Positions 1 through 41,260 of a stretch of 64,000 nt of DNA are shown here, piece by piece. Within the stretch, counting starts at the first letter, position 1; the number at the start of each line of letters is the position of its first letter. A model generated the notes under the pieces. The model searched no databases, was not told the origin of the DNA, and worked only from the letters and a program-made list of their open reading frames with translations. The DNA lies in the IMG/VR virus record IMGVR_UViG_2687453479_000001. The stretch is one strand, 5' to 3'. The stretch is from an uncultured virus (IMG/VR IMGVR_UViG_2687453479_000001). Lineage: Duplodnaviria; Heunggongvirae; Uroviricota; Caudoviricetes. The position numbers were made by a program, and so were the translations under genes.

Positions 1-2535
1 TCATGCCCGCGCTCCCTGGGTATCGGTGTGACCGGCAGCGCGGTCCTGATTCTTGTTGATCATGAAATTGAGCAGGTAATCGCGGTACAACTGCACCACA
101 GCCAAGCCGGGGTTGGCCTTGCCCGCCACCTCGCGCACGTCCTGCGCCATGGTTTTGAAGGATTCATCCGCATCGGTGACGATGAACACCTGCGACAAGC
201 CGGTGCGACCTTCCAGCGACTTCAGCAGACGGCCCATACGGGTTTCATCCAGCAGCACCACGAAATTGCTGCCCTCTGGCGCAAACAGCGCGGGTTCTGG
301 CTCTCCGCGTTTCAATTCAGGCCGCGGCCCCACAGCGCCCGCCTTCAGCCACAGCAGCGGCAAGATTTCGCGGAAGGCGCGGCGCAGCGACACGCGTTCT
401 CGCTCCAGAAAATCCAGCTTGAAGTAGGCGAGGTTGGCAGCAAAGCCCGCGCTCATCGGGCGTTTTTCTTCCTCCGGCACCAGTAACGGCCCGAGCAGCT
501 CCACCACCTGCGCCTTCAACTGGTCGTACACACGCTTGACGGGCGTGACGATGTAGAAGTCGGTAATGTGCTCTTGTCCGTCGAGTGCCTCCAGCCAATC
601 TTCTGCGGCTGCTGGGTCAAACAGCACGCTGGCCTTGTGGTCTTCGGAAACGATGAACCGACAGGGATCTTTCACCAGCGTTTGCGGCAGCCCATCGATC
701 AGTGCCACCACCTGCTTCTTCTTGGGCAGTGCGTCGAGCTGCGCCGGATCGACAAAGCCGATCTGCGTGAATCTGCGCGCTTTCTCACGCTCCACGGTTT
801 TGCCGGTCAGGTATTCACCCGACAGCACCGAGCCATCGTCACGCTGGCCCAGGATGGTGTACTTGCTGCGCGGCCAGGTCACCGAGCGGCAGATGCCTTG
901 CGCTTCCCATTCGGCGTCGCCGGGTTGCAAGCCGCGGGCGCTCAAGGATGCGGCCTCCTCTGCGGAGACTTCGTTGTTGGTGACCAGGATGCAGCGCCGC
1001 TGGCCGCCATCGGTGGCGTTGAGCAGGTTGACGGCATTCAGTGTGGTGCCACTGCCTGCGAAGAAATCCACGATTAGGGCGTTGGGACGATCACGCACAA
1101 CGGCGGCCACTGCATCACGAGTGGCATAGAGCGATTTGGGAAACGAGAATTTTCGTCCTTCGCCAAAGATCGATTTGAGTATGTCAGCGCCGTAGGCCCC
1201 GGCATCGTGTGCACTGCGATGCCAGACGGTTTTGATCTGTCGCTCGCGCTCCTCAGCGTACTCAACGCTTACAACATTGCGTAGTTTGTCAAACTCGACG
1301 ACCCGAATCGCGCCACTTTCAATTTGCAGTTGAAGTTTGCGACTAAGGTACGAGATACCCCAAGTTCGTCTGCTCTCGTCAAAACCGCCTAGGCTTACGT
1401 AGCCTTTCTTAATCAATCCACGCAACGATTCAGGACCAACGCCCCAGTTCCCGAAACTTCCATCCATGCGAATCGGCCAAGCAGCGGCAAAACCGTCAAC
1501 TTTCGCGTCCAAGTCTGGAGTTTGATCCAAAGGAAGGTAATCACCGGCCCCAACAATGGCATTCCGCTCAGTATCAATAAGCACTGGGAAGAACATCTTG
1601 TGTCGATCCTGGCGGCGCGCATTTGTACCTGACCGAAGAAGCCCCTTCCATCGCGGAGTCGTATTTGTGCCAGGTTTAGCTGGCGAGAGCAGGTCATCAC
1701 CCAAGCTGTTTACGAATGCTTGGTTTCCAAAACAAAAAAGTGCGTACTCCTCAACCCTAGAGAAACGCCCCTGAGTTACACCTTTTGGGTTAATAACGAT
1801 GGTTACCAACTGCCGGTACGCCTCCGGAAATTCCCGTTCCAGCAGCATCCCGAGGTGATGCACCTCGTGCTCGTCAATCGTGACGATCAGTACCCCGGTA
1901 TCCGGCTTGAGCAGCCGCTTGGCCAGCTTTAGCCGCTTTTCCATGAAGGCCAGCCACTTGCTGTGCCGCCAGCCATCGTTGCCGTCCACGTAATCGTTGT
2001 TGTATTTCCAATCGCGCGCGCCGGTGTTGTAGGGCGGGTCGATGTAGATGCAATCGACCTGACCGGCATACAGGTAATCCAGCAATTGCAGCGCGTGGTA
2101 GTTGTCGGCCTCGATCAGCGTGTGCCAGGGGGCATCTGCTGGGCCGTTGGCCACTGAATCTACCGGCACTAGCGCGGGGAAGATCGGCTCGCCAAACTCC
2201 CGCACCACCAGCAGTTCATCCACCGGAAACTGCACCGGCTCTGCCGCTGCGCGGGTCGGTTCGCTAGGGTGCGCCTCGTTGCTGGGTTTAACGCAGGTGG
2301 CCACGCCCGCGTGGATGGTCTTGATTTGCCACACATCTTTCAGCGCACCCTGACGGCGACACACCAGATCGCCCTTGCGTGGCTTGGCTCCGTGCAGCGG
2401 CAACAACTCGGGCAGGTGGTCTTCAAACACCAGGCCGAATTTCTTTTCTTTCTTGGCGTTGTCCCACTCAGCAGTGAGGCGCTCGCGCAGGCGGGGATCG
2501 CTGATTTGGGCGATCAGGGTATCAATGGCGGACAA
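1..2535 (-). CDS. Adenine DNA methyltransferase, type III Mod-like
   Basis: IDPPY motif, DFFAGSGTT motif I, TTG start after GGAGG; stop overlaps an ATG (ATGA) of the next gene off-window. Confidence 0.85.
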   Translation of the reverse strand: MSAIDTLIAQISDPRLRERLTAEWDNAKKEKKFGLVFEDHLPELLPLHGAKPRKGDLVCRRQGALKDVWQIKTIHAGVATCVKPSNEAHPSEPTRAAAEPVQFPVDELLVVREFGEPIFPALVPVDSVANGPADAPWHTLIEADNYHALQLLDYLYAGQVDCIYIDPPYNTGARDWKYNNDYVDGNDGWRHSKWLAFMEKRLKLAKRLLKPDTGVLIVTIDEHEVHHLGMLLEREFPEAYRQLVTIVINPKGVTQGRFSRVEEYALFCFGNQAFVNSLGDDLLSPAKPGTNTTPRWKGLLRSGTNARRQDRHKMFFPVLIDTERNAIVGAGDYLPLDQTPDLDAKVDGFAAAWPIRMDGSFGNWGVGPESLRGLIKKGYVSLGGFDESRRTWGISYLSRKLQLQIESGAIRVVEFDKLRNVVSVEYAEERERQIKTVWHRSAHDAGAYGADILKSIFGEGRKFSFPKSLYATRDAVAAVVRDRPNALIVDFFAGSGTTLNAVNLLNATDGGQRRCILVTNNEVSAEEAASLSARGLQPGDAEWEAQGICRSVTWPRSKYTILGQRDDGSVLSGEYLTGKTVEREKARRFTQIGFVDPAQLDALPKKKQVVALIDGLPQTLVKDPCRFIVSEDHKASVLFDPAAAEDWLEALDGQEHITDFYIVTPVKRVYDQLKAQVVELLGPLLVPEEEKRPMSAGFAANLAYFKLDFLERERVSLRRAFREILPLLWLKAGAVGPRPELKRGEPEPALFAPEGSNFVVLLDETRMGRLLKSLEGRTGLSQVFIVTDADESFKTMAQDVREVAGKANPGLAVVQLYRDYLLNFMINKNQDRAAGHTDTQGARA

Positions 2536-2614
2536 ACTTCCCTCCTTTTGGCCTACCAGCCCACACGGGCTGCAGACTCGTGTTCATTCAGCAATTCGAT
2601 GGGGCCAGTCATTA

Positions 2615-2818
2615 CTAGCCCTTTTCTTCCGGAGCCGCATGCTCATCAGCTCCACCGGCGCGCACCCAGTCATCCACCTCGGAAACCTGGAACTTCCACA
2701 ACCGACCCACGCGGTGCGCTGGCAGCCCCTTGCGGTCGATCCAGCGGTAGATCGAGTCGCGCGTGACACCCAGATGCTCGGCAATCTGGTCCACGGACAC
2801 CCAAGGTTCAGCAGTCAT
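2615..2818 (-). CDS. Excisionase-like helix-turn-helix protein, probable regulator of the R-M operon
   Basis: MTAEPWVSVDQIAEHLGVTRDSIYRWI...LPAHRVGRLWKF. Confidence 0.8.
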   Translation of the reverse strand: MTAEPWVSVDQIAEHLGVTRDSIYRWIDRKGLPAHRVGRLWKFQVSEVDDWVRAGGADEHAAPEEKG

Positions 2819-2937
2819 CGCAGCGCTCCGGTTGCAGGGGTTCGGATGGCATAAAGTCGGTCTAAATCGTAAAGGTTGCAATTTATCAGGTTGAAGGGCG
2901 GTAGACGAGGGGTCGATGCCGTGGGCATCATCTTTTT

Positions 2938-2967
2938 CTTGGCTTCCTGATCATTCAGCGCGTGAAT
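2938..2967 (+). promoter_or_regulatory. Conserved 30-bp upstream motif, copy 1
   Basis: CTTGGCTTC-N7-TTCAGCGCGTGAAT; six more copies in window. Confidence 0.7.
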
Positions 2968-2998
2968 GGTGGCGTCATCCATCAACCCGGAGCCCACC

Positions 2999-3202
2999 AT
3001 GACCAGCCAGACCGCCGCCATCGACGCCTATCTCGACCGCACCGCCGCCATCCGCATCAAGCTGGCCCGGCTGCAGCAACTGGCCGACGACCACTTCGGC
3101 CACGACCCTGACGCCATCCACTGGGGCCACGTTGGCGACCTGGGGCGGGTGGAGCAGGCACTGGATGAGTTGCTGGCGATCTTCGACGGCCAGACCAAGT
3201 GA
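2999..3202 (+). CDS. Small hypothetical protein (67 aa)
   Basis: GGAG RBS, ATG, follows conserved motif, overlaps next gene (GTGA). Confidence 0.7.
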   Translation: MTSQTAAIDAYLDRTAAIRIKLARLQQLADDHFGHDPDAIHWGHVGDLGRVEQALDELLAIFDGQTK

Positions 3203-3699
3203 CGGAGGCCATGATGGAGACCCTGCTCAAACTCTCCCCGGCTCAAAGCCTGCTGCTCCGCACCGCTGCCCGCCGTGCCGATCGACGCGTGATCCCGCCC
3301 GACACCCTGCGCGGTGGCGCACGGGCCAAGGTGCTGACCGCACTGCTGCGGCGCGGCTGGATTGAGTCCGCCGACGGCGGGCACGTGCTGACCGACGCGG
3401 GCTACGCTGCCATCGGCCTGCAGCGGCCAGTTCAGCCGGATGACGTCCAGCCGATGGACACCATCGACGACCTCCAACTTCTGGAGGGCATCCCGGTGCG
3501 CCCTGGCACCAAGCTCGCCGCGCTGGTGATGGCACTGCGCCGCCCGCAGGGGGCGACCAGTCTCCAACTGATGCTGGTCACCGGCTGGCAGCCGCACACC
3601 GTGCGCGGTGCGATCTCCGGGATGCTGCGCAAGAAGCTGGGACTGAACGTGGTGCTGTCACACAACGGCAGCGGCGAGCGGGTATATCGCGTAGTCTGA
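3199..3699 (+). CDS. DUF3489-like protein
   Basis: C-terminal LRRPQGAT...TGWQPHTVRGAISG...GERVYR; paralog at 37843. Confidence 0.75.
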   Translation: MTEAMMETLLKLSPAQSLLLRTAARRADRRVIPPDTLRGGARAKVLTALLRRGWIESADGGHVLTDAGYAAIGLQRPVQPDDVQPMDTIDDLQLLEGIPVRPGTKLAALVMALRRPQGATSLQLMLVTGWQPHTVRGAISGMLRKKLGLNVVLSHNGSGERVYRVV

Positions 3700-3949
3700 C
3701 TGTGGCCAAGGGTGTCCAGTTTCTGGAGGCCCTTGCGCCCGCTATCACGATGGCCGATTTCGCGATCCGCGTGTGTAGAACACCTGCAAACCCGCGCCAG
3801 CATTGATTTTTTGACCCTGGCCGTTTTTCATTCGGATGGGGTGCAAACCTGCGAACCCGGTACGCACTCAGGTTCGCACCTTTCCCATTCTTCTCCATCC
3901 CACACAGGCCCGCGCTGTCGCAGCATTCGGCCTATCGGGGCGTGCAGTG

Positions 3950-4050
3950 GGGTGCGAACCGCAAACCCTGCAAACCTTGTTTTCTGGTCGGACGGTGGCG
4001 CAATGCTGCGCTGTCGCCCCCCGTATTGGAATATCGCCAGGAAGGACCCG
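3950..4050 (-). other. Putative lambda-like cos site 1 (cosQ-cosN plus repeats)
   Basis: Minus strand GGGTCCT-N20-GGGGGGCGACAGCGC then GGTTTGC repeats; homologous to 41160-41260. Confidence 0.7.
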
Positions 4051-4111
4051 CTTTGCCTGTGGTGGTCGATGGGGTCGCAAATCGCGACATCATCCACGCG
4101 AGTGAGGTGAG

Positions 4112-4327
4112 CATTCCCAATGCTCACCCTCTCTTTAGAGAGGAAACACCGGGAACCCGGGAATGCGTTGATTTCATTGGGTTTTAATCCTTCCCGGCTC
4201 AGCTGGGAAGGAATTGCCCCGGGAACGATTTAAACCCTTGTGTTTGCTGGCGGTAAATCGTTCCCACCCCTTGCGCGTTCCCGCTGGGAAAGCGGGAAGC
4301 CGGGGACGATTGTTGGGGGCGGGAACC
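4112..4327. repeat. Iteron-like GGGAA/TTCCC repeats, putative replication origin of element A
   Basis: About ten GGGAA/TTCCC units in both orientations directly downstream of primase-helicase. Confidence 0.6.
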
Positions 4328-4328
4328 A

Positions 4329-6476
4329 TTATTCGATCACCGGCCGACCGGCACTGGAGCGGGTCAGGTGGCCGGTGACGAACACGGCCTGACCTTGGGC
4401 GACCGGTCCGTCGGGCACGTCGAGCCACTTCACCAGCTTGGAGCCGTCGGCCATGGCGGTGACCAGTTCACCCTGCGCCAGCAAGGTATCCACCCAGCCG
4501 GTAAGCCGATGCTTGCCGATGGCATGGAAGGCGTCGGGCAGCTCGTGGCGGCGTTCGTACAGACCGTTGCCACCGGTCTTGGTGTAGGGCTGGCCATCCC
4601 GCGCAGCGCGAGCGATGGCGGATTTGAGCGCAGGCAACAGGTCATCTGGCTCCGGTCGGGCCTGGCGCAGACGGTCACTGCAATCGACCAGCAAGCCGCT
4701 GGTACTGCGCAAGAAGGTGGTCACGCGCAGGTTGGCGCGGCTATTGGCCTTGACCACACCGCCCATCACCACGCGGCCGCGCTCAAAGGGTTCGCCCAAG
4801 GCCTCGCAGAGTTTCTTGGCCTGATCTTCCTTGGGCTGCCACAGGGCATAGACCGCCCGCACGCCATCAACCAGGCCGCCAGTGCCCCGGATCGCCTCGC
4901 GGGCCTGCTCGGGTGTGGAGGCTTCGCGCTTGGCAAAGTGGTGCGACACGATGACAGAGGCACCCGTGCTGGCCGCCAGCGCCGCCAAACGCGAGCAGAC
5001 GAACTGGGCGTTCTCCGGCACGTTCAAATCCAGCGCGCATAGCGGCTGCAGCGGATCGAGCACCACCAGGCACAGGCTGGGCATGGCCTTGAGTTGCCGC
5101 TCCAGATCCATCCACGCCGCCGTGGTCGCGGGGCCTCGGGTGGCCGGGTCGGGCGCAAACAGCGGCACCGCGCCTCCGGCATCGGGCAGTGGCAGCACGT
5201 ACAGGCGATCCGGAATCGGCCCGAGGGCGTTGAGCCGGTTGTGCACTTCGATGGCATCGTCCTCGGCGGTGATGTAGATCGCCATGCCGTGGCCAGCCAA
5301 GGCGCCGCCGAACAGTGTGGGCGCATTGGCCCAGACGCCGTCGAAAGCTGCGACCTCCCGCGTGAGCGCCAGCAGCAGGAAAGATTTTCCGACCCCGCCC
5401 GCAGCGGCGATCAGCGCGGCTTGCGCTTGGGGGAACACCCCTTCGACCAGCCAGCGGCGTTGCTGGGGCTGCCCGGTAAAACGATCTGCCGCGCGCCAGT
5501 GGTTGATTTCCAGCGCTGGGGTGGCTGCTGTTGTGATGCCTGTGACCGGCTGTGAAGCGCGCAGCAGCGCTTCGACATCAAAGCCTTCCGCCACGGCGTC
5601 GGCCGCATCCCACTTGGCGGGCTTGTCCTGCGGCACATAAACACGGCGGACCGTGGCCCCGATGCTCGCCAGTTTCTGGATGACGGCAGCGGCATAGCGC
5701 GCCCCCGCCTCATCGTGATCGGGCCAGACGGCGACTGTCTTGCCTGCCAGCGGCGTCCAGTCGGTTTTATCGATGGCCGTGGCCGCGCCGCCCATCGCGG
5801 TGGTGGCTGCGATGCCCAGTTGCATCAAGGCTTCGGCACATTTTTCACCTTCGACCAGCACCACGGCATCGGCGGCAGCAATCGCAGGAAGGTTGTAGAG
5901 CGGACGCGGTTCCGGCATGCGCATGACCCGCGCCCGCACATCCCACGGGCGGTACTGCTTGCCGCTGGGTGTGTCGTGCCGATACACACAGGCCAGGAGA
6001 CTGCCATCGGCCGCCAGGTAATCCCATTTGCCGGTGTGGGGGCCAAGCTCGTCATAGGCACGGCGGGTGTGCAGTACTGGCGCAGCGGCGATACGCGGCA
6101 CCATCAGCCAATCGCCCGCGTCCTCCAACAGCTCGTTGAAATCGTTGGGCAAGCAATAGCCCCGTGTACTGGCCCACAGCGCCAGCACATCGCCCGATTC
6201 GCCGGTGGCGAAGTCGATCCACACGCCGCGTTTGGGGCCCTCCAGTTCAACCACCAGACTGTCGCCCGGCTCACCTTGCAGATTGCCGATGTAGAACTGG
6301 TTGCCGCGCCGTTTGCCGCGTGGCAACAGATAGAGCAGCACCGATTCCAATTGATCCAGCAATCGAGAGCGGATTTCATCCTTGTCGTGGCGCGGCAGGA
6401 TGAGGTCGGCGGCATCGTTGAAATCAAAGAAGGGATGGCTGGCCACCGTGGTGGTTTGCGTTGCGGTCGCCATCAT
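4329..6476 (-). CDS. Primase-helicase (Toprim + AAA_25/RepA-like)
   Basis: LVEGEKCA, WPDHDEAG Toprim motifs; GGVGKS Walker A; VVLDP Walker B. Confidence 0.85.
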   Translation of the reverse strand: MMATATQTTTVASHPFFDFNDAADLILPRHDKDEIRSRLLDQLESVLLYLLPRGKRRGNQFYIGNLQGEPGDSLVVELEGPKRGVWIDFATGESGDVLALWASTRGYCLPNDFNELLEDAGDWLMVPRIAAAPVLHTRRAYDELGPHTGKWDYLAADGSLLACVYRHDTPSGKQYRPWDVRARVMRMPEPRPLYNLPAIAAADAVVLVEGEKCAEALMQLGIAATTAMGGAATAIDKTDWTPLAGKTVAVWPDHDEAGARYAAAVIQKLASIGATVRRVYVPQDKPAKWDAADAVAEGFDVEALLRASQPVTGITTAATPALEINHWRAADRFTGQPQQRRWLVEGVFPQAQAALIAAAGGVGKSFLLLALTREVAAFDGVWANAPTLFGGALAGHGMAIYITAEDDAIEVHNRLNALGPIPDRLYVLPLPDAGGAVPLFAPDPATRGPATTAAWMDLERQLKAMPSLCLVVLDPLQPLCALDLNVPENAQFVCSRLAALAASTGASVIVSHHFAKREASTPEQAREAIRGTGGLVDGVRAVYALWQPKEDQAKKLCEALGEPFERGRVVMGGVVKANSRANLRVTTFLRSTSGLLVDCSDRLRQARPEPDDLLPALKSAIARAARDGQPYTKTGGNGLYERRHELPDAFHAIGKHRLTGWVDTLLAQGELVTAMADGSKLVKWLDVPDGPVAQGQAVFVTGHLTRSSAGRPVIE

Positions 6477-6718
6477 TGCGTGTGCTCCACACCCAGACGG
6501 GCCTTGAACCAGTCGCCATTGGCGCGCACGCAGTAGTAGGCGCGACCAGGGCCGGTGCTTTTGGCATCCGGCACGATCCACAGCTGTTCGCGAGCGTCGT
6601 AACGCCAACTGCCCGGGCCGAACATTTTGTCGAGCATGGCCTCGATGCCGTGCTCGGCAATGTGGGCACGCAGTTGCCGGGTAAGGTTGTCGCGCTGACG
6701 GCGTTGAGCGCGGTTCAT
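6473..6718 (-). CDS. Hypothetical protein
   Basis: ORF overlapping both neighbours by 4 nt. Confidence 0.65.
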   Translation of the reverse strand: MNRAQRRQRDNLTRQLRAHIAEHGIEAMLDKMFGPGSWRYDAREQLWIVPDAKSTGPGRAYYCVRANGDWFKARLGVEHTQ

Positions 6719-6939
6719 TGCCAGATTCCTTCGCTGACAGACTGCCCTGCGGTGCAGCGGCGGGTGCGCTGCGCCTCATGTGCTGACACATCGTCCATGC
6801 GGTACAGCACCCGGCTACCCAGCTTGAGAAACGTGGGGCCATTGCCGGTCATGCGCCAGCGTTCAAGGGTTTTTTCAGAAAGGCCCCAGCGGGTCGCCAA
6901 AGTGCGCGGGGTAATCAATTCGGGCAGCGTGGTTTGCAT
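6715..6939 (-). CDS. AlpA/excisionase-like HTH regulator
   Basis: LATRWGLSEKTLERWRMTGNGPTFLKLGSRVLY; GGAG RBS. Confidence 0.85.
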   Translation of the reverse strand: MQTTLPELITPRTLATRWGLSEKTLERWRMTGNGPTFLKLGSRVLYRMDDVSAHEAQRTRRCTAGQSVSEGIWQ

Positions 6940-7140
6940 CGGAATCTCCTGTCGTCGGTGGGGGACGCTGTCCCGCCAAGAGGGATGTGCGCCCGCGATG
7001 AGGAGATTCTTCGCCTGCTGATTTCTGAAGGCAAATGGCCAAAATTCGCTTTTGTACGAAACGGCCACCAATAGCCCCAGGCATTACTCTAAATTGCTAT
7101 CCGCTTCAGGGCTTTTTTACAACAGCACCCGGGATATTGA

Positions 7141-7581
7141 GTGCGACCGAAGCTGAATCGTGCCCGCAAAGCCGCCAAAACCTTCGTACAGGCCTGGCGC
7201 GAGATGCAAAGCGTGGAGGCGGTGCTGTTGCAGCGCGTGCGCCTGACCCACACCCGCGTGACAGGCGACACCTGCGCTCGCTTCGACCACGAGCTGATCG
7301 GACAAACGCGTGATGGCGAGCTGCTGCCGACCTTGATCGCGGGCATCTCGTATGAAGAGCTGCGTGATCTGAACGACCAGTTCACTCGCACCGACAACGA
7401 ACTGGTCGTGGCACTGGACAACGCCCTGCGCAGGGCAGGCTTCGACGGTTGGGGGCTTAAGGTCTATCACCCGAAGGCCAAAGGTGATGAGCGTCGCATC
7501 TACGCGCCCGATCCCAATCCACCGAAGAAGCATCTCGGTCATGGCACGGGCCTGTCGACCGTGGTGCGCGTGGATGTGTGA
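7141..7581 (+). CDS. Hypothetical protein divergent from the HTH gene
   Basis: 146-aa ORF after an AT-richer intergenic region. Confidence 0.5.
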   Translation: MRPKLNRARKAAKTFVQAWREMQSVEAVLLQRVRLTHTRVTGDTCARFDHELIGQTRDGELLPTLIAGISYEELRDLNDQFTRTDNELVVALDNALRRAGFDGWGLKVYHPKAKGDERRIYAPDPNPPKKHLGHGTGLSTVVRVDV

Positions 7582-7970
7582 GGGCTGCCGTCATGGAAAT
7601 CCAGCCATCGCGCCAGCATCTGCCTGATCGCTTCGGGCCGCTGTCGCCACGTATTGCACCCGGACCGGAAGGTCTGGAGCGCCAGCCCGCCCGACAGAAG
7701 TTATTGCCACCGGCAGCACATGCCACCATCACGTGCGATGACGGCATTGGCGTGTTGCCGTCCGTTTCGCAAGCCTCGTGGGGTGAGGCATCGATCGGCG
7801 TACCGGGCAGGCCATCGTCATCCATCGTGCACAGGCCGCGCCGCGTGCGGATCAAGCTGCCGTGGTGGTGGCGCTGGTTGTGTGCCGCCGCGCGTATTGA
7901 ACGCCGCCTCTGGCATTGGTGGCAGCGCCATTTCCTGCGCCCGACGCGTCGGCATCGCCGCCGGTGAAAT

Positions 7971-8073
7971 GGGTCCTTCCCTCACAAGAACCGATACGGG
8001 TGGCGCGAGCGCGCGCCCTCGTCAGCGACAGATTCCGAAACTGGGTTACCACCCGAGGTTACCGGTTACCACC
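7971..8073 (+). other. Putative lambda-like cos site 2
   Basis: GGGTCCT-N20-GGGTGGCGCGAGCGC followed by three GGTTACC repeats. Confidence 0.6.
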
Positions 8074-8095
8074 TGATCGAAAGAGCACGGTTTGA

Positions 8096-8125
8096 CTTGG
8101 CTTCTGCCTGCCACAGCGCGTTCAT
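8096..8125 (+). promoter_or_regulatory. Conserved 30-bp upstream motif, copy 2
   Basis: CTTGGCTTC-N7-CACAGCGCGTTCAT. Confidence 0.7.
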
Positions 8126-8156
8126 GGACCTGTCTCAACCACAGGAGAAATTTGAA

Positions 8157-8618
8157 ATGACGGTCACCCTTAACAGCAGCATCTCGGCCCAGCTGGCCGT
8201 GCTGCCATCCCTGCCGATGGCCGAGCTCTGGGCGCTGTGGGATCTGTACTTTCCCCGGCGCCCCAGCCATCGCAATCGCCATTACGTGGAATCGCGTCTG
8301 GCCTACCGCATTCAGGAGAAAGCCTACGGCGCGCTGCCCACCAATATTCGCAAGATGCTGGTCGAGGCCGGGGCCAAGCATTCCAAGATCAAGTCGGCTG
8401 CCGGTCGCAGCGCGCAGACCCTGCTGATGCCTGGCACCACGCTGATCCGCGAATGGGATGAGCGCCAACACCGTGTAACGGTCACGCCCGATGGTCTGTA
8501 CGAACTCAACGGGCAGGTGTTCAAGAGCCTGTCGGCGGCCGCACGCCACATCACCGGCACGCGCTGGAACGGGCCGAAGTTCTTTGGCCTGTGCGATCGC
8601 AAGGGGGATGGTCAATGA
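8157..8618 (+). CDS. DUF2924-like protein
   Basis: LAYRIQE, PGTTLIREW, SLSAAARHITGTRWNGPKFFGL; directly upstream of recombinase. Confidence 0.8.
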   Translation: MTVTLNSSISAQLAVLPSLPMAELWALWDLYFPRRPSHRNRHYVESRLAYRIQEKAYGALPTNIRKMLVEAGAKHSKIKSAAGRSAQTLLMPGTTLIREWDERQHRVTVTPDGLYELNGQVFKSLSAAARHITGTRWNGPKFFGLCDRKGDGQ

Positions 8619-9955
8619 ATGCGCCATTGCTCGTGCCACCGAAACGCTGCGCGGTGTATTGCCGCGTGTCCAGTGATGAGCGTCTGGACCAGTCCTTCAA
8701 TTCCATCGACGCGCAGAAGGAAGCCGGGCACGCCTTCATCAAGAGCCAGAACCACGAGGGTTGGATTGCCGTGGCCGACGACTACGACGATGGTGGTTTC
8801 TCCGGCGGCAACATGGAGCGTCCTGCCTTGAAGCGCCTGATGGCAGACATCCAGATGGGTAAGGTCGACATCGTGGTGGTTTACAAGATCGACCGGCTGT
8901 CACGGTCGCTGGCGGATTTCGCGCGAATGGTCGATGTGTTTGACCGCCACCGGGTCTGTTTCAGCGCTGTCACGCAGCAGATCAACTCGGCCACCTCGAT
9001 GGGCCGCCTGATGCTCAACGTCCTGCTGTCCTTCGCGCAGTTCGAACGGGAGGTGACCGGCGAGCGCATCCGCGACAAGATCGCCGCCAGCAAGGCCAAG
9101 GGTATGTGGATGGGCGGGCCGCTGCCGCTCGGGTACGACGTCGATAACCGACTGTTGGTGATCAACGAAGTTGAGGTCAAGCTGGTTCGCCGCATCTTTG
9201 ATGACTTCGTGACCGTGCGCTCGGCCACGCTGATGGCCAAGGCCTACGGCGCGCAAGGCGTGGTCACCAAGGGCGGCAAGCCCTTCACCAAGCAGACCAT
9301 CTACAAGATGCTGCACAACCGGATGTACCTGGGCGAGATCGTTCACAAGGGGCAGAGTTTCCCGGGCCAGCATCAAGCCATCATCACCCAGGCACAGTGG
9401 GATGCGGTGCACGCGTTGATCGCCACCGATGGGATCGAACGGCGGCGTGCGACGAATGACCGCCAGAGTGAGCCAGTGTTGCTGCGTGGTTTGCTGTTCA
9501 CGTCCGATGGCGAACGGCTGGTGCCCAGCTACACGGTCAAGAAGGGCAAGACCTACCGCTATTACAGTCCGATCAAACACCGTCGCTTTGGCGCATGGGC
9601 CAGTCAACACGGCCCGTTGCCAGCCGTGCCGATTGAAGAGTTGGTCACGCAGCAGATCGTGGCGGCGCTGTCAGCCCCGCACATCGTGCAATCGGTGTGG
9701 GGCCGAATGCAGAACATCCGGCCAGATCTCACCGAACCGCAGGTCGTGCTGCCAATGCGTAACCTCGCCAGCTTATGGCGGGAGTTGTTTCCAGCCGAGC
9801 AGTGCCGACTGGCGCAACTGCTGATCGAGCGCGTGGTGATTGCCGACGGCGGGCTGGAAATCATCTGGCGCGATCAGGGCTGGCAGGAACTGGCCGGGGA
9901 ACTGATGCCCGGCACCATCGGTGCGGAATTGCAGGAAATGGAGGAAATCGTATGA
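8615..9955 (+). CDS. Large serine recombinase (integrase)
   Basis: YCRVSS catalytic motif, DDGGFSGG, KIDRLSRS, FAQFERE. Confidence 0.92.
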   Translation: MNAPLLVPPKRCAVYCRVSSDERLDQSFNSIDAQKEAGHAFIKSQNHEGWIAVADDYDDGGFSGGNMERPALKRLMADIQMGKVDIVVVYKIDRLSRSLADFARMVDVFDRHRVCFSAVTQQINSATSMGRLMLNVLLSFAQFEREVTGERIRDKIAASKAKGMWMGGPLPLGYDVDNRLLVINEVEVKLVRRIFDDFVTVRSATLMAKAYGAQGVVTKGGKPFTKQTIYKMLHNRMYLGEIVHKGQSFPGQHQAIITQAQWDAVHALIATDGIERRRATNDRQSEPVLLRGLLFTSDGERLVPSYTVKKGKTYRYYSPIKHRRFGAWASQHGPLPAVPIEELVTQQIVAALSAPHIVQSVWGRMQNIRPDLTEPQVVLPMRNLASLWRELFPAEQCRLAQLLIERVVIADGGLEIIWRDQGWQELAGELMPGTIGAELQEMEEIV

Positions 9956-10404
9956 AGCCGAAAGTGCAGCCCTTGGGCGCAGCCATCGCCCGCGAACGTC
10001 AGGACGGCGGACGGGTGAAGTTGTCCACCTTCATCCCGCTGAAGATCCGCAAGCGTGGTGGCTGCAAGGTGGTGGTACGCCCGGACGGCCAGCTCGATGC
10101 GCCGGGCAAGGTGGCCACCCAGATCGACCAGCCCTTGCTGGTGGCGCTGACGCGGGCCTTCTACTGGCAGCAACTGCTCGATGATGGTGTGGTGGGCAGT
10201 GGCAGCGAGATCGCCCAGCACGAAGGCCTGCACCACTCGACGGTCAACGAACTGCTGCGTCTGACCCTGCTGGAGCCCGCCATCATCCAGACCATCCTGG
10301 CCGGGCAGCAGCCCAAGTGCATGAGCCTGCTGTGGTTCCAGCGCAATCCGCTGCCGACGGACTGGGTGGCGCAGCGGGAGGTGGTGGCGGGGTTTGATGC
10401 CTGA
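9952..10404 (+). CDS. Recombinase-associated HTH protein (possible directionality factor)
   Basis: ATGA overlap with integrase; paralog at 54184. Confidence 0.7.
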   Translation: MKPKVQPLGAAIARERQDGGRVKLSTFIPLKIRKRGGCKVVVRPDGQLDAPGKVATQIDQPLLVALTRAFYWQQLLDDGVVGSGSEIAQHEGLHHSTVNELLRLTLLEPAIIQTILAGQQPKCMSLLWFQRNPLPTDWVAQREVVAGFDA

Positions 10405-10722
10405 CTGGGTTACGAGCCCTCGATCACCCGTGCCACATCACTGCGGCATTCAGCGCACTTGCCGCCACCCTTGATGGCGCCGCTGAAATTGGTGATCGTT
10501 GTCTCAAAACGGCACTGGCCGCACCAGACGTTGGACAGCAGTCGCTGGCGGATATCGGCAGGGATGGTCTCTCAGCGCTGACGGGTGGGTTTGGTGAAGC
10601 TGGGAAATGACTCAACGCCTACTGTGGACTCTGCCAGTTCAGGCACCCGCTTGATCGCCATCGCCCTGGCTTCTTTCATCGCAGCCTGAGTCTGCAGGTT
10701 CGGTGTTTTCTCGTTCATGGCA

Positions 10723-11103
10723 TCACTCTGCGGCGACGGCAAACGACCGCAGCCAGGGATCGAGGTGGGCGATATCAAAGGTGCCCGAGTCGAACATCTG
10801 CATCATCTCGGCATAGATCTGCATCGGCGCACGCTGCAAGCGCCAGCCATTGATGCGCAGGAACACGTCGGCCGCCGCAAAGGCGATGCGCTTGTTCCCG
10901 TCCACGAACGGGTGGTTGATTGCCAGGCTTTCCAACAGAGCAGCAGCCTCAGCCACGATGTCATCGTAGTAGCCGGTCTGCGGCCGGAACAGTGCGGCCT
11001 CCAGCGCCCCTGGGTCACGCACGCCCGGCGCGCCGCCGTAACGCTGCATCAGCACCGTGTGCATGCCCAGCACATCGGCCACGGTCAGGTAATCGTGAGC
11101 CAC
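10723..11103 (-). CDS. doc: Death-on-curing (Fic/Doc) family toxin
   Basis: NHPFVDGNKR motif, GVRDPGALEAAL, 126 aa. Confidence 0.88.
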   Translation of the reverse strand: MAHDYLTVADVLGMHTVLMQRYGGAPGVRDPGALEAALFRPQTGYYDDIVAEAAALLESLAINHPFVDGNKRIAFAAADVFLRINGWRLQRAPMQIYAEMMQMFDSGTFDIAHLDPWLRSFAVAAE

Positions 11104-11106
11104 GGT

Positions 11107-11352
11107 TTACTTGGCCAATTCGCGGTAGAGGCTGTCGAACTCTTCCAGACTGGAAGCGAAAGAAGCCATCACGTGGCGGCGTGGGCGCTCTTTTTGCTGC
11201 CGGTCGATATAGTCGCGCAGGGCGTCATCGAGCACCGCCTGGAACTGGCGGCCCTGGCTTTCTGCGATCTGGCGCAGCGCCGCCAGCACATCGGGCGCGG
11301 CCTGGGAGGAAAACTTTTCGCGGACAGCAGTGGTCATGGCCATCTCCATCAT
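11107..11352 (-). CDS. Putative antitoxin (ribbon-helix-helix-like)
   Basis: Small ORF immediately upstream of doc. Confidence 0.72.
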   Translation of the reverse strand: MMEMAMTTAVREKFSSQAAPDVLAALRQIAESQGRQFQAVLDDALRDYIDRQQKERPRRHVMASFASSLEEFDSLYRELAK

Positions 11353-11459
11353 GATTCATCTTGACGCTTCATGATAGAGCAAGACAGGAAGGTTTGCTAC
11401 CGCGTTGACGGCGTTCGATGCCTGACCGGTGGCCTTGGTTGACGGTGAACCGGCGCTCG

Positions 11460-11472
11460 TAAGTTGTTGATT
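11460..11472 (-). promoter_or_regulatory. IHF-consensus site near element A end
   Basis: AATCAACAACTTA matches WATCAANNNNTTR. Confidence 0.5.
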
Positions 11473-11614
11473 TTACTAGACCGCCATCTGCGCCTACCCG
11501 CAGGCCAAACGGAGAACAGAGACGGCTCTGACCGAGAAAGTGGCCGATTTCGGGTGTTTCGGGTGATGGTCACCCGCAGCACAGGTGGCCGGAACCCCGC
11601 GTGGTGCGGGGATT

Positions 11615-11672
11615 TCGGGCAAGAAAAAGGGCCCGGAGATTATCCGAGCCCTTATATATGGTGGTGGGGCGG
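11615..11672 (-). terminator. CCACCA end + intrinsic terminator; att-like right end of element A
   Basis: Minus strand CCACCA...AAGGGCTCGGA-loop-TCCGGGCCCTTTTTCTTGCCCGA; same layout at 55713-55773. Confidence 0.6.
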
Positions 11673-11852
11673 CAGCCCGCGCCAAACGACCGTTGAAAGT
11701 ACGCGATACCGGCGTTCCGGCAAGTTGATAAGTCCTGCTGGCTGCTGCGAAAAGCGGGGGTTGACAGGCCAGAGGCAGCGGACGATCAAGCGGTTTTTCC
11801 CGTGGATCGGTCACCGATATGGCCGTTCAAACTCGTATGCTTCTCTGGTCCG

Positions 11853-11888
11853 GTTCGATTCCGGAATCGGGAATTGAACCCGCGTCCG
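11853..11888. repeat. att-like motif with tmRNA 3'-arm-like sequence
   Basis: GTTCGATTCCGG-N4-GGGAATTGAACCCGCGTCC; degenerate copy at 15533. Confidence 0.5.
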
Positions 11889-11975
11889 TCCCCCCGACCA
11901 AGAGCACACCCATTCACACCCATTCCGGGGTAAGGCAGCCCGGGGTGCGGGGAATCGCACCTTCTATCGCCGCAT

Positions 11976-13093
11976 TATTGATCCGGCCCTTGCGCACTTG
12001 AAATTTTCTGCACCACCCTCAACTCGGATTCATGCAAGCAACCGACATGAGATCGCTGAGCCGCGAAGCGCGGCACGAGCGCCGCGTGCAGGTCATTCGA
12101 CTGCGCAAAGCCGGCAACACGTACGAGGAAATCGCCGTACTCACCGGCCTGAGCCGCACGGGCGTCTTCAACATCTGCAAGCGCCATGAAGCGCTCGGCG
12201 CCAAGGCCCTGCACGACACCATCGGAGGCCGCAAGGTGGGGCAGAACCGCTTGCTCGATGCCGCGCAGGAGGGGCAGGTTCGCAAGCTCATTGCCGACAA
12301 GACACCCGATCAGCTGAAGATGCCCTACGCGCTGTGGAGCCGCGCTGCAGTGGCCCAACTCATCGAGCAGCGGTTTGGCATTCGATTGCAGGTGCGCACC
12401 ATGGGCAAGTACCTGGCGCGCTGGGGCTTCACACCGCAAAAGCCGATGAAGAAGGCCTACGAGCAGTCACCGGCGGCAGTCAAGAAGTGGCTCGATGAGG
12501 ACTACCCGGCCATCGCCGCGCGCGCCAAGGCCGAAGGGGCGGAGATTCATTGGGGCGACGAGAGCGGGCTGCGCAGCGACGACGTGCGCGGCCGAGGTTT
12601 CGCGCCCAAGGGCCAGACGCCGGTGGTGCGGGTCAACAACAAGCGCCACGGCCTGTCTGTCATCTCTACCGTCACCAACAAGGGGCAGATGCGCTGGCGC
12701 ATTTTTGACGGCGCGCTCAACACCACGATCCTGATCGACTTTCTGCGCCGCCTGATCAAGGGACAGACCAGAAAGCTATTCCTGATCCTGGACAACCTGC
12801 GGGTGCATCACGCCAGGCAGGTCAAGACCTGGCTAGCAGAGCATGCCGATGCCATCGAGGTGTTCTACCTACCGAGCTACAGCCCGGAGTTGAACCCGGA
12901 TGAGATGGCCAATGCAGACATCAAGCAGGCGGTAACCAAGCAGGCGCCGGCGCGCACGAAGCTGCAATTGGTGAAGGCCGCCGCAAAGCACTTACGCAGC
13001 GTGCAACGCCAGCCCGAACGAATTCGCAAGTATTTCGAGCACGGCCCTGTTCGCTATGCAGCTTGATACAAGTTCACAGGGGCCGGATCAATA
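11976..13093 (+). mobile_element. IS630-family insertion sequence
   Basis: Terminal IRs TATTGATCCGGCCC/GGGCCGGATCAATA including duplicated TA. Confidence 0.93.
12032..13066 (+). CDS. IS630 DDE transposase
   Basis: WGDES, ILDNLRVH, LPSYSPELNPDE. Confidence 0.95.
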   Translation: MQATDMRSLSREARHERRVQVIRLRKAGNTYEEIAVLTGLSRTGVFNICKRHEALGAKALHDTIGGRKVGQNRLLDAAQEGQVRKLIADKTPDQLKMPYALWSRAAVAQLIEQRFGIRLQVRTMGKYLARWGFTPQKPMKKAYEQSPAAVKKWLDEDYPAIAARAKAEGAEIHWGDESGLRSDDVRGRGFAPKGQTPVVRVNNKRHGLSVISTVTNKGQMRWRIFDGALNTTILIDFLRRLIKGQTRKLFLILDNLRVHHARQVKTWLAEHADAIEVFYLPSYSPELNPDEMANADIKQAVTKQAPARTKLQLVKAAAKHLRSVQRQPERIRKYFEHGPVRYAA

Positions 13094-13143
13094 TATGCGG
13101 TGAATAACTTGCGCATGCGGAGAATGAAGCCCATAATCTCCGC

Positions 13144-14265: not shown

Positions 14266-14288
14266 TAACCGCGCGTCTTCTGAATTGA

Positions 14289-14318
14289 CTTGGCTGGCGG
14301 ACCGAACAGCGCCTTCAT
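14289..14318 (+). promoter_or_regulatory. Conserved 30-bp upstream motif, copy 3
   Basis: CTTGGCTGG-N7-AACAGCGCCTTCAT. Confidence 0.65.
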
Positions 14319-14352
14319 GGACTCCTGCCAACTCATGCGGAAGGAGACCAAG

Positions 14353-14571
14353 ATGGACGTCGTTCACCTCAATCAAAAACAACTGGCCGCCCGCTGGAGT
14401 ATCAGCGAAGCCACCCTCGAACGCTGGCGCAGCGCGGGGATAGGGCCCAAGTTCCTGAAGATCTGCGGCCGGGTGTTGTACCGCCAAGTCGACATCGAAG
14501 CCTACGAGGAGTCGTGCCTGCAGATATCAACCAGCCAGTCTGCGGTCGTTGCCCATGGCCAAACAAACTGA
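14353..14571 (+). CDS. AlpA-like HTH regulator
   Basis: HLNQKQLAARWSISEATLERWRSAGIGP; close paralog of 50197-50409. Confidence 0.85.
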   Translation: MDVVHLNQKQLAARWSISEATLERWRSAGIGPKFLKICGRVLYRQVDIEAYEESCLQISTSQSAVVAHGQTN

Positions 14572-16544: not shown

Positions 16545-16560
16545 TCATCTTCCTCCCAGG

Positions 16561-18026: not shown

Positions 18027-18147
18027 AGGCTGCTCCATTTCATTGGTTGACACTTCAGTTGTCAGTTTACACTGTGGTTGACGATGGCGCCAGGTGGGTT
18101 TGGTCTTCAGTGTTGGTCGCGAAGAGGATTTTTGGTTGACGCTGCGC

Positions 18148-18180: not shown

Positions 18181-18183
18181 AAC

Positions 18184-20018: not shown

Positions 20019-20022
<4 letters not shown>

Positions 20023-34901: not shown

Positions 34902-36872
34902 TCACGTCAGCCAGCGGCTCTTGATCACACGCCGGCCGGTATTCCGGGTTCCAGAAACGGCGAGGCCACCGCTATGGGTGGCCTCGTTCGAGTCGATGTC
35001 TTGCGGGGGTGACGGCGCGTCGGGCGGCCTCGCCACACCGAGTTGCCGTTCCAGCTCACGCCAATGGCGCTCCTCGAAACGGTCGAGCCCTGCGGCCGCA
35101 GCGGCGGCGCGGGCATACACGTAGCAGTCGAGGGCTTCGTTCCTCTCGCGCATCTTCTGCCACTCGCGCACCGGAAAGCCGTTACGGTTGCGGCGGGTGA
35201 TCAACTGCTCCGCGCAGAGTTGCTGGATAAACTCGGCGTCGATCCTGGGCAGATGGACGAAACCGGCGGGGTAGGCGATGCCCACCCCATCCTCGTCCAC
35301 CAGCGCCGTCTTGCGCAGGTTGTTGTAGAACTCGAGCTTGGCGATGCCGACCGCGACCGCGAACACCTTGAGCCCCCGGCGCAGCTTGCGACCGCCCTGG
35401 GAGACGTCGACGGCGGTGGGGGTGCCGATGAGCGCCGCGCCGCGCGCCACGCCCTTCACCGCCATCACACGGGAGTCGCGGCAAGCGCGCACAAAGCCGT
35501 AGGCCTCCTGCGTCGCAAAGCCGGTGTCGAGCGCGAAGCGGGCCAGCGGCATGGCCGCGCCCGAGGCGTGGGTCCAGGTCTCGCCGATCAACGCAGCCAA
35601 GCGCTTCCACACCGCGTCGCGCGCCGTGTCACCCATCAGCACCCGGTGCTCGATCAGCCAGCACTCCTTGCCGCGCCCGAAGGCCCAGATCGAGGCCTCG
35701 ATGCGGTCCTTCTGCACGTCGGCACCGCCAACGAGCAGGAGCCCACCGGCCGGGATGCTTCCGATGGCATAGTCCTCGCGCCGCTCCAGCAGGCGTTGCC
35801 AGTCGGGCGCTTCGCCTTCCTCAACCCAAGTCTCGCCGAGCTCGGTGTTCTTGAAGGTTTTGATCGCGGCGCTCGATCCGGTTTCCTTGCTCACGGCGGC
35901 TTCCCATGCGGCGGCGATCTCGCGCCAGGCGCGCCAGCCCAGCGGGCTGTAAAGCGAGGACAGGTGAAAACCGGCCGTCTTGCCCGTGCCTTCCGCCGTC
36001 GCGCGCCACTCGCCGTGCTCCAGCATCCAGGTCTTGTGGTGCTCGGCGATCGGCGTATCGCACGATTCGCAGACGTAGGCCGCCGATTCGGGCGCGCCCT
36101 TGTCCCAACGCAGCTGCTCGAAACGCAGCCACTGCCGGTGCGAGCAATGCGGACAGGGCACGAAGTAGCGACGCTGGTCCGACGCCTCGTACTCACGCTC
36201 GACGGCGCTCGCGCCCGCGATGGTCGGCGTCGAGACGATGAAGATCTTGCGCCGCGCGAAGGTGCGGGTGCGCGCCTCGGCGAGCGAGATCGCATCACCT
36301 TCGCCTTCGACGTCGAGCGGATAGCCGTCGACCTCGTCGAGAAACAGATACCGCACCGGCATCGAGCGCAGTCCGACCGCGCTGTTGGCGCCCGTCATCA
36401 CCAGTACGCCGCCTCGGAACTCCTTGGCGAGGATGGTGTTGCCCGAGTCGCGCGAGCGGGCCGGCGCGATCAGTTCCGAGAGCACCGACGACTCCTCGAT
36501 CAGTGGATCGATGCGCTGCTTGGAGTTGCGCTTGGCCATCTCCACGGTCGGCCAGACCGCCATCATCGGCCCCGGTGCGTGGTGGATGACGTAGCCGATC
36601 CAGTTCGAACCCGTCTCGGTCGCGCCCACCTGCGCGCCCTTCATGAACACCACGCGCTCGACCGGTGAGGTCGGCGACAGGCAATCCATGATCGCCTTCA
36701 GATACGGCGTGCGCGCGGTGCGCCAGCGCCCCGGTTCGCTCGAGGCCTTGCTCGACAGTACCCGGTGACGGTCGGCCCACTCGGAGACGGTCAGTAACGG
36801 GTCGGGCGTCAACCCTTCGCGCCAGGCGCGCTCGATGGCGTCCCAGCCTTCGTAGGCGAACTCGTCCATCAA
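34902..36872 (-). CDS. terL: Terminase large subunit, lambda GpA family
   Basis: KGAQVGATE, LFLDEVD, VSTPT, GADVQKDR, RNEALDC. Confidence 0.93.
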   Translation of the reverse strand: MMDEFAYEGWDAIERAWREGLTPDPLLTVSEWADRHRVLSSKASSEPGRWRTARTPYLKAIMDCLSPTSPVERVVFMKGAQVGATETGSNWIGYVIHHAPGPMMAVWPTVEMAKRNSKQRIDPLIEESSVLSELIAPARSRDSGNTILAKEFRGGVLVMTGANSAVGLRSMPVRYLFLDEVDGYPLDVEGEGDAISLAEARTRTFARRKIFIVSTPTIAGASAVEREYEASDQRRYFVPCPHCSHRQWLRFEQLRWDKGAPESAAYVCESCDTPIAEHHKTWMLEHGEWRATAEGTGKTAGFHLSSLYSPLGWRAWREIAAAWEAAVSKETGSSAAIKTFKNTELGETWVEEGEAPDWQRLLERREDYAIGSIPAGGLLLVGGADVQKDRIEASIWAFGRGKECWLIEHRVLMGDTARDAVWKRLAALIGETWTHASGAAMPLARFALDTGFATQEAYGFVRACRDSRVMAVKGVARGAALIGTPTAVDVSQGGRKLRRGLKVFAVAVGIAKLEFYNNLRKTALVDEDGVGIAYPAGFVHLPRIDAEFIQQLCAEQLITRRNRNGFPVREWQKMRERNEALDCYVYARAAAAAAGLDRFEERHWRELERQLGVARPPDAPSPPQDIDSNEATHSGGLAVSGTRNTGRRVIKSRWLT

Positions 36873-37399
36873 TCGACCCGAACCTTCAGCTCACCGAGCT
36901 CGGCGAGGTGCTCGCGCACGGCTGCCTCCAGCGCCACGTGCAGCGTGTGAGCATCCACGCCGAGCCGGGCCGCCATCTGCGCCGAGATCCGCGCCGGCCA
37001 GTTGAGCCAGGCATCGCGCTCGGTGCGCGCGAGCCGGAACACGTGCGCGATGGCCTGGTTGCGGTCGACCAGTTCGCCCTTGAGGCGGGCCAGGCGCACC
37101 TTGTTGGTCTGCGCCTTGACCACCTCGTTGACCGTGCGTGCCTGCACGAACGTGGTGCCGCCCGCAGGGAGTCCGGTGGCCAGGTTCGGTGCTACGTCCT
37201 CGGCCACGCGCACCTTGGCGGCCTTCGCGCGTGTGCCGGGCTTCGCCGACTCGGAATTGCGCGCCCATTCGGCGTCGGCCTTGTCCGGGTCAATGGTGCC
37301 GTCGGTTTCCGGCGTGATGCGCCCGGCGCGGATGGCCTTGTGCACCGCCGTGTCGGTCACGCCCCGGTGTCGCGCGTAGGCGCGGATCGAGATTCCCAT
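36869..37399 (-). CDS. terS: Terminase small subunit (Nu1-like wHTH)
   Basis: SIRAYARHRGVTDTAVHKAI, GELVDR; overlaps terL start. Confidence 0.8.
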   Translation of the reverse strand: MGISIRAYARHRGVTDTAVHKAIRAGRITPETDGTIDPDKADAEWARNSESAKPGTRAKAAKVRVAEDVAPNLATGLPAGGTTFVQARTVNEVVKAQTNKVRLARLKGELVDRNQAIAHVFRLARTERDAWLNWPARISAQMAARLGVDAHTLHVALEAAVREHLAELGELKVRVD

Positions 37400-37576
37400 C
37401 GGCCCCTTCAATCAAATCATCGTCATTCCTTCGGACAAAACGGCAGGACAGCCGCTTTGCACGGCGAAGCCGCCCGTAGGGCGAGCCACATGGATGTCGC
37501 GAGTGAATCAGCTTGGCTTCCATCGGGAACAGCGCGTTCATGTCATCACCATCAACGGCGTCGCAAGGTGACGAAC

Positions 37577-41159: not shown

Positions 41160-41260
41160 GGGTGCAAACCGCAAACCCTGCAAACCTTGGTTTGCAGTCT
41201 GACGCTAGTAAAGCGCCGCGCTCGCGCCCCCCGCATGGCTCGGTGCCCAGGAAGGACCCG
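41160..41260 (-). other. Putative prophage cos site
   Basis: GGGTCCT-N20-GGGGGGCGCGAGCGC plus GGTTTGC repeats upstream of the methylase-terminase operon. Confidence 0.72.

Follow-up and report, generated by a model that had tools for sequence, protein, structure and literature searches.

A family of capsid-less, tmRNA-integrated elements carrying lambda-type cos sites: likely satellites of AcaML1/RcC/WO-like temperate phages

We analysed a 64,000-nucleotide stretch of DNA from an uncultured member of the Caudoviricetes (IMG/VR record IMGVR_UViG_2687453479_000001; hereafter the window), in which an element with its own integration and replication genes, termed element A, lies in a tandem array with a cryptic prophage, prophage C (28125-55765). 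Element A is a member of a family whose elements measure 12-20 kb, are integrated at tmRNA and have no capsid, and we consider it likely that it is a satellite resembling the PICIs (chromosomal islands that phages induce), derived from the AcaML1/RcC/WO-like temperate phages with a GpA-type terminase, which would serve as its helpers. A first-pass annotation of the same DNA had proposed a new type of satellite spanning 2600..11670; a new family of the PICI-like kind stands, a new category does not, and the left limit was wrong, for the element continues past 2600 and runs off the left edge of the window.

The non-coding DNA at 3949-4050 of element A aligns to 41159-41260 of prophage C with 75.5% identity over 102 nt (E 1e-12), its local alignment score of 84 standing against a maximum of 33 in 300 shuffles; the match that had been claimed for ~3950-4050 and ~41160-41260 is thus real. 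The likeness to lambda cos drawn in the same annotation is weak when taken directly (score 24, reached by 7/300 shuffles), being confined to GGGTCCT and a G-rich cosN at similar spacing, with 21 nt from cosQ to the nick here and 23 in lambda. The identity as cos comes by way of the Rhodobacter RcC phages, whose 11-base 5' overhangs were determined from sequencing reads (PMC8601537, Table 3; this and the other papers cited by identifier are drawn upon in excerpt). The large terminase subunit (TerL) of prophage C is ~55% identical to those of the RcC phages, and the small subunit (TerS) of RcBaka is 44% identical to that of prophage C. The records of RcDormio, RcKemmy and RcFrancesLouise start exactly at the homolog of the predicted overhang, that of RcBaka starts 2 nt earlier, and that of RcOceanus was opened at its first gene. 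The three exact starts comprise 11 nt that symmetric TGCG/CGCG flanks enclose and that, in records whose right end was retrieved, follow a cosQ-like heptamer at 21 nt; the overhangs of element A and prophage C were placed by this spacing, and the one predicted for the first site of element A, cos1, is flanked by symmetric TACG/CGCA. Since the homolog coincides with the starts of three of five RcC records and lies within 2 nt of the fourth, we identify the motif, by homology to mapped virion ends, as a real lambda-type cos; the termini of related virions, by which the first-pass annotation had proposed to judge its claim, do map to it.

This motif is present in at least 120 IMG/VR loci. Among the matches listed, 109 have phage context, typically with the motif between DUF6362 and the methyltransferase (MTase)-TerS-TerL genes, one belongs to the satellite family, one is a further element (L070) and nine are too short to tell. 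Searches of GenBank phages by blastn gave one weak Ralstonia match for one cos of element A and none for the other. We also considered a third, degenerate cosN behind cos1 and dismissed it for lack of conservation.

The architecture of element A recurs, which the first-pass annotation had held to be decisive: from primase searches returning 47, 46 and 17 loci, we recovered 76 with a primase at least 70% identical, 40 of them non-redundant and forming one clade. In a FastTree phylogeny (84 rows, reduced to 64 at 97%), these 40 primases occupy one side of a branch with support of 99 against 22 helper-type primases, and in a separate integrase tree 34 family integrases lie on one side of a 100-supported branch with the AcaML1 integrase as sister; satellite rows in both trees were picked partly by identity to the window proteins, the independent part of the label being that none carried helper markers. 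Measured against the copy in the window, primase dN/dS has a median of 0.12 (range 0.09-0.21), at dS values reaching 1.4. As primase and integrase form clades of their own under purifying selection, element A is not a one-off decay product. The gene order accessory-large serine recombinase-DUF2924 / helix-turn-helix (HTH)-81-aa protein-primase-cos1-cargo is constant where flanks allow, and of the 34 members that offer 500 bp of flank, 32 have cos1. Across 31 members, column conservation is 1.00 for cosQ, 0.98 for TRCG, 0.92 for the overhang, 0.88 for the repeats and 0.54-0.62 for the flanks, where ungapped columns mean that indels lower the values; cosQ is invariant across dS near 1. A second site, cos2, is present in 17 of the 23 loci covered (not dereplicated) of subclade I, the one that includes element A, and three aligned members without it lack a clean block of ~110 bp. 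DUF6362 is in 0 of the 76 loci, and the structural markers tested found no match in 75, lysis genes not having been queried separately; the remaining locus (L244) adjoins a prophage remnant.

The hosts span two classes, the Beta- and Gammaproteobacteria, and comprise Burkholderiaceae, Comamonadaceae, Alcaligenaceae, Azonexaceae, Zoogloeaceae, Alcanivoracaceae, Chromatiaceae, Woeseiaceae and Stenotrophomonas. Its members are uncommon: a survey of 401 genomes of one order found the family primase in only two and helper-type primases in 23; no plasmid or phage record with the element was found. In one member (L228), cos1 is replaced by a canonical class-T site (see below). A sister lineage (L016, L264, L265, L272; primase 63-65%) has its own TerS with the helix HEAVRK and GGTTGCC repeats, and L264 further carries gpW and portal genes, with no TerL or capsid seen there.

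The family junction is CCACCA followed by a hairpin. A tmRNA stands at the integrase end in 9/29 and 7/31 scanned loci and a tRNA-Ala in one (L221:2074-2149), where the element is integrated at that gene and not at tmRNA. AcaML1 is reported to reside in tmRNA (PMC3826726) and starts with CCACCA as well, and an intact prophage follows the element in tandem in another genome (G005). Five bounded relatives, their far junctions assigned by eye, measure 12.4, 15.0, 18.4, 19.6 and 19.8 kb; the ORFs checked up to that junction are defence cargo, with no terminase or capsid, a proxy for the left flank by which the first-pass annotation had also proposed to judge its claim, and conjugation genes did not appear in the scans of bounded members. 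Family cargo comprises type I and III restriction-modification (R-M), GmrSD, McrBC, Shedu, AbiD, AbiE, TOTE-AEP, Schlafen and Fic genes. The R-M cargo claimed for element A is borne out by a type III Mod gene (Table 1), which in a relative (L009) has a 96% identical counterpart followed by Res, GmrSD, TOTE-AEP and host genes.

The cosB-type repeats downstream of cosN fall into classes. Over 122 motifs (the 121 IMG/VR matches listed plus prophage C; 39 with a complete TerS), 49 have GGTTTGCA (class T), 38 GGTTACC (class A) and 27 GGTTCGCA (class C), with eight unclassified. Lambda TerS reads its cosB repeats with the second helix (PMC9026076), and in the present set the repeat class agrees with the putative recognition helix of TerS in 38/38 classified phages: DTAVHK with T (n=15), DAAVRK or EAAVRK with C (n=13) and HVAVKK with A (n=10). 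This coupling exceeds linkage, because the class changes 10 times on the TerL tree and 12 times on that of the MTase lying between cos and TerS (minimum two), even as classes are still more clustered on the trees than in shuffles. The rule is kept in 3/3 further prophages; RcBaka and AcaML1 combine GGTTTCCA repeats with the helix HTAV[G/A]K, and L264 combines GGTTGCC with HEAVRK. Thus, the coupling is shown statistically, and it suggests that the TerS helix binds the cosB repeats in this phage family. Direct alignment with lambda Nu1 found nothing, and a nearest-neighbour statistic on the TerS HTH (22/38) was discarded as uninformative, near-identical neighbours having been excluded. AcaML1 gp23 (L174:16261-16794), annotated as hypothetical, is 40% identical to the TerS of prophage C and directly follows the cos at 16094, whereas the annotated small terminase gp33 is unlike TerS; gp23 is probably the true small terminase.

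By this classification cos1 of element A is class T with a C-type last repeat (T,T,C), matching the class of prophage C, and cos2, inverted relative to it, is class A. A second repeat array lies ~75 bp beyond cos1 and is kept in most subclade I loci.

A bipartite motif, CTTGGCT-N11-13-CAGCGCGTKMAT, precedes the DUF2924 and phrog_14596 operons of element A as well as four small genes of prophage C (37512, 37783, 38372, 38656), against a chance level of two matches in 30 shuffled windows. It is found in 39 of the 46 loci having 5 kb downstream of cos, and it precedes 46/47 family DUF2924 genes and also that of AcaML1. Of its 15 copies in five host genomes, 12 lie within mapped elements; the remaining three are close to additional integrase or Fic genes or are unmapped. 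DUF6362 has a weak match to sigma-70 region 4 (E 0.04), and we posit that the motif is a promoter activated by the helper DUF6362.

Hence, we propose the following life cycle. The element's own DUF2924-serine integrase-accessory module would integrate it at the 3' end of tmRNA; helper growth would switch on the integrase operon, probably via the motif shared with the helper; and the primase-helicase and iterons would drive replication into concatemers. Helper TerS would then bind the cosB-type repeats and TerL cut cosN to leave 11-nt 5' ends, two to three copies of the 12-20 kb unit filling a full-size head. As cos1 is of class T and cos2 of class A, element A probably uses two helper types, so that at least two TerS specificity classes could be served by an element without its own TerS, and the R-M and Abi defence cargo would be delivered to new hosts; the use of both sites is deduced from their sequences. 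We also tentatively entertain the idea, to which we give somewhat less than an even chance, that such elements collect keys, mimicking in inverted orientation the cosB of two TerS classes (perhaps three, counting the second array), with a helper-wired integrase promoter and no packaging protein; as part of this, the inversion might keep cos1 and cos2 from terminating each other's packaging, for which our confidence also stops short of even. The same data might amount to a simple two-residue TerS-DNA code pairing D/H and then T/A/V/E in the helix with an xGC or xCC repeat core, a proposal that we likewise regard as slightly less probable than its negation.

Several observations weigh against the satellite interpretation. 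Neither a virion nor an excised circle nor a concatemer was seen; of the IMG/VR records, the five inspected were provirus or linear; and the 24 SRA runs listed include none labelled as virome, the sources being genomic or metagenomic contigs. Compared with the intact prophage of G005, prophage C has lost capsid and most tail genes and has no S49 protease; it is therefore not a working helper or particle donor. Co-resident prophages checked in three further genomes do not match exactly in class: satellites with cos1 only (T-type) sit beside class-A prophages (G009, G010), and a T+A satellite sits beside a class-C prophage (G005). The cos2 overhang of element A has one G>T change relative to the consensus, and cos2 is missing in 6/23 subclade I loci and not seen in subclade II. 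Class-T helpers have a first inverted repeat that is absent from the cos1 of subclade I, which thus imitates them inexactly. Element A has furthermore lost ~570 bp at ~7170, with the 5' half of an orphan gene, and no interference gene was identified in it. IMG/VR scans for virion-type element ends gave one match, a helper, in one scan and none in the other, and a contig depth of 206 for the element as against 149 for the prophage contig in one dataset (X2), not being a copy number, was not used.

The absence of a packaged form, the class mismatches of co-resident prophages and the members devoid of cos2 would fit a prophage-derived, self-integrating and self-replicating defence island, whose cos sites are passengers, a terminase decoy or a means of lateral transduction and whose spread is independent of its own packaging, as would the helper homologs of all core genes and the attachment site common with AcaML1. 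We hold this to be improbable, as cosQ, cosN and repeats are kept while their flanks drift, there is a second cos, of another class, at a place without one in helpers, near-identical elements are found in different bacterial classes, and the bounded members scanned showed no conjugation gene. The tandem position near prophage C and the deletion in the window copy could alternatively point to a one-off decay product of a prophage like C; given a single clade of 40 non-redundant primases, a shared gene order, dN/dS of 0.09-0.21 and only 39% identity to the prophage C primase, this has next to nothing in its favour. Less improbable than either, yet still unlikely in our view, is a mechanism akin to that of the Rpp protein, in which the DUF3489, 295-aa or 81-aa protein would alter helper TerS or attach to the rearranged cos1 arrays; packaging would then not be cis-only and the helper would be actively blocked, as in EcCICFT073, for which PMC6739421 provides the precedent. 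The rearranged cos1 of subclade I with its second array, the presence of DUF3489 mostly in the same loci and the weak resemblance of the DUF3489 model to winged-helix proteins speak for it; yet in subclade II the cos is of the canonical class-T form and DUF3489, itself also a normal helper gene, is mostly absent, the core genes have no TerS-family PHROG match, and the repeats equal natural helper repeats, unlike those of EcCICFT073. The hijacking purely in cis advanced in the first-pass annotation accordingly applies best to subclade II and less to subclade I, element A included, where a rearranged cosB stands beside DUF3489. On balance, we favour the PICI-like satellite.

Table 1. Features of element A and of the packaging region of prophage C in the window
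Feature	Position	Strand	Basis or remark
Type III R-M Mod subunit, cargo	1..2535	-	PADLOC MTase_III, E 4e-137
Excisionase-family HTH heading R-M cargo	2615..2821	-	HTH_17, E 1e-15; mad1-like
Bipartite motif CTTGGCT-N11-CAGCGCGTKMAT, probable promoter	2938..2967	+	Before phrog_14596/DUF3489
phrog_14596, 67-aa phage protein	2999..3202	+	PHROG profile
DUF3489 protein	3199..3699	+	Homolog between MTase and TerS genes in helpers
Second repeat array behind cos1	3842..3878	-	Inverted TGCGAACC, then GGTTCGCA and GGTTTGCA; class-C-like
cos1	3953..4049	-	cosQ 4049-4043; predicted 11-nt 5' overhang 4021-4011; cosB repeats 3976-3953
Putative replication origin, GGGAA iterons in both orientations	4114..4325	.	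Position and repeat count
Toprim primase-AAA_25 helicase, 715 aa	4329..6476	-	Pfam/PHROG; 39% identity to that of prophage C
81-aa protein, no known family	6473..6718	-	Precedes primase in some helper-type loci too
AlpA/Xis-like HTH_17 regulator	6715..6939	-	E 1.7e-5, below Pfam cut-off; phrog_66
3' remnant of 295-aa orphan gene	7141..7581	+	Comparison with family copies
cos2	7971..8070	+	cosQ 7971-7977; predicted overhang 7999-8009; GGTTACC repeats 8044-8070, class A
Bipartite motif before DUF2924-integrase operon	8096..8125	+	Probable helper-responsive promoter
DUF2924	8157..8618	+	Pfam
Large serine recombinase (integrase)	8615..9955	+	Pfam; 51% identity to that of prophage C
Recombinase accessory protein, phrog_14161	9952..10404	+	PHROG
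Doc/Fic toxin, variable slot	10723..11103	-	Pfam/PHROG profiles
Probable antitoxin	11107..11352	-	Position; weak RHH/RelB-like matches only
Attachment junction, CCACCA of tmRNA-type 3' end	11659..11664	-	Tandem-array junction
Prophage C TerS, class-T helix DTAVHK	36869..37411	-	PHROG profile, helix classification
Prophage C cos, class T	41163..41259	-	cosQ 41259-41253; overhang 41231-41221; repeats 41196-41163

Scanning the 16 ORFs of 1-11352 with Pfam and PHROG profiles gave no match to terminase, capsid or tail families, as the first-pass annotation had stated, and the AlpA-like HTH, primase-helicase and iterons that it listed are all present. Its claim of a right end common with prophage C holds for the integrase module and not for the toxin-antitoxin pair, which has no homolog there. 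The sole TerS-family PHROG match, phrog_57 (E 1e-6), comes from the HTH heading the cargo. GGGAA/TTCCC occurs 11 times in the block downstream of the primase, where ~0.4 would be expected (the window-wide rate being 1.55 per kb), and we take this block to be the likely replication origin; a repeat search of the window returned chance-level families only. phrog_14596 and DUF3489 are common to element A and the prophage packaging region, a link that the first-pass annotation had overlooked, as it had cos2, the bipartite motif and the ~570-bp deletion. The DUF3489 structure model has two small, winged-helix-like helix/strand domains (pLDDT 80) and weak fold matches (E >= 0.016), many of them to winged-helix proteins; the atlas and De-DUF text, in the portions consulted, offered no function. 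The orphan gene has no family in the atlas, Pfam, PHROG or NCBIfam, and its single-sequence model is poor (pLDDT 41).

Prophage C has its portal fused to a tail-chaperone remnant, and its first MTase gene (40316-41100) appears split, a ParB-like start at ~41090 lying apart from the rest. Between the two elements, 11675-28100 holds IS630, Fic, AbiEi, type I R-M, YgjP-like, sigma-70-like and DrmA-like genes and an HTH gene with the same bipartite motif at 14289, and represents either cargo of prophage C or a further element. The region 55765-64000, continuing in L281 and in G001, which is without element A, codes for an HK97-type capsid, protease, portal, HNH, TerS, TerL, head-closure and primase proteins and, judged from its translation, a probable tyrosine integrase, with no tail seen; its appearance is that of a capsid-forming PICI belonging to this tandem array.

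Element A can probably use more than one kind of helper and spread anti-virus defence genes between distant bacteria. In it, a very common prophage family has a first candidate parasite, and R-M and Abi systems a concrete and testable route between Beta- and Gammaproteobacteria. Whereas known cos PICIs reprogramme TerS by a protein, this family seems to widen its helper range in cis, and such stacking of cos sites would explain why helper TerS and cosB switch class while TerL remains ~85% conserved. With the TerS helix-repeat code, packaging specificity becomes open to direct test, and orthogonal cosmid systems for environmental bacteria could follow from it. Virus catalogues miss such elements, the nearest IMG/VR record covering the prophage side only.

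Among known systems, the Gram-negative cos PICI EcCICFT073 resembles element A in its integrase, AlpA-like regulator, primase and origin, absence of virion genes and two cos sites and, as proposed for element A, in lambda-type terminase packaging into full-size heads. Both cos sites of EcCICFT073 are functional, and SaPIbov4 is credited with two putative ones (PMC6092414); the cosB of EcCICFT073 differs from that of its helpers and its cos1 needs Rpp-TerS (PMC6739421), whereas both cos sites of element A reproduce natural helper cosB classes. Among the core genes PHROG showed neither Rpp nor TerS, no direct search with the Rpp sequence having been made. The integrase of element A also differs, being a serine recombinase with DUF2924 and accessory protein, at an attachment site common with prophages. 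Of the defining PICI features in the excerpt of PMC6092414, element A has the integrase, replication module and regulator (the last by profile only), and structural genes are absent (75/76 loci and the cargo Pfam scans of bounded members); an exclusive attachment site is lacking, because AcaML1 occupies tmRNA and the G005 prophage lies in tandem. The norm of ~12-15 kb given there compares with 12.4-19.8 kb in the five relatives; the definition also asks for induction that depends on a helper, interference and high-frequency packaging, and the PICI model of SatelliteFinder is a quorum of five core components (PMC10085698). In its proposed mode of action the element thus resembles a cos PICI, yet it departs from the PICI definition at one point, and no Rpp was seen in it.

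The PICMIs, minimalist chromosomal islands that phages induce, share a minimal int-alpA-small ORF-primase core, the absence of capsid remodelling and, if our proposal holds, concatemer packaging. They are described as residing at fis, with a virulent helper, random headful-like ends and no cos found (PMC10803314); the element A family is at tmRNA, is larger and has defined cos sites of temperate phages, and of the PICMI definition it has the integrase and PF12728, with a Toprim-AAA_25 primase instead of DUF3987/DUF5906 and tmRNA instead of fis. Serine recombinases are reported in the PICI-like elements (PLEs), in module 3 of the marine virion-encapsidated integrative mobile elements (VEIMEs) and in a few tycheposons (PMC9618062; bioRxiv 10.1101/2020.12.28.424599); VEIMEs also carry R-M and Abi-like cargo. 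These differ in their hosts, and no cos mimicry is described in the excerpts, the distinction following published descriptions. Two-cos and serine-recombinase satellites are each known, separately; we found no description of this family in the literature searched, where just four papers name DUF2924 or DUF3489, and supplements such as SatelliteFinder element tables may list members. An unrelated D5-primase element (L070; 996-1030, 5645-5679) carries inverted class-T and class-A cos sites and DUF3489, having apparently converged on the T+A pair. With the AcaML1/RcC/WO family of candidate helpers, finally, element A shares the DUF2924-large serine recombinase-accessory module, tmRNA attachment, primase type, DUF3489, cos architecture and bipartite motif, and it differs from them in being without TerS and TerL, heads, tails, DUF6362, RuvC and the Cas4-like nuclease.

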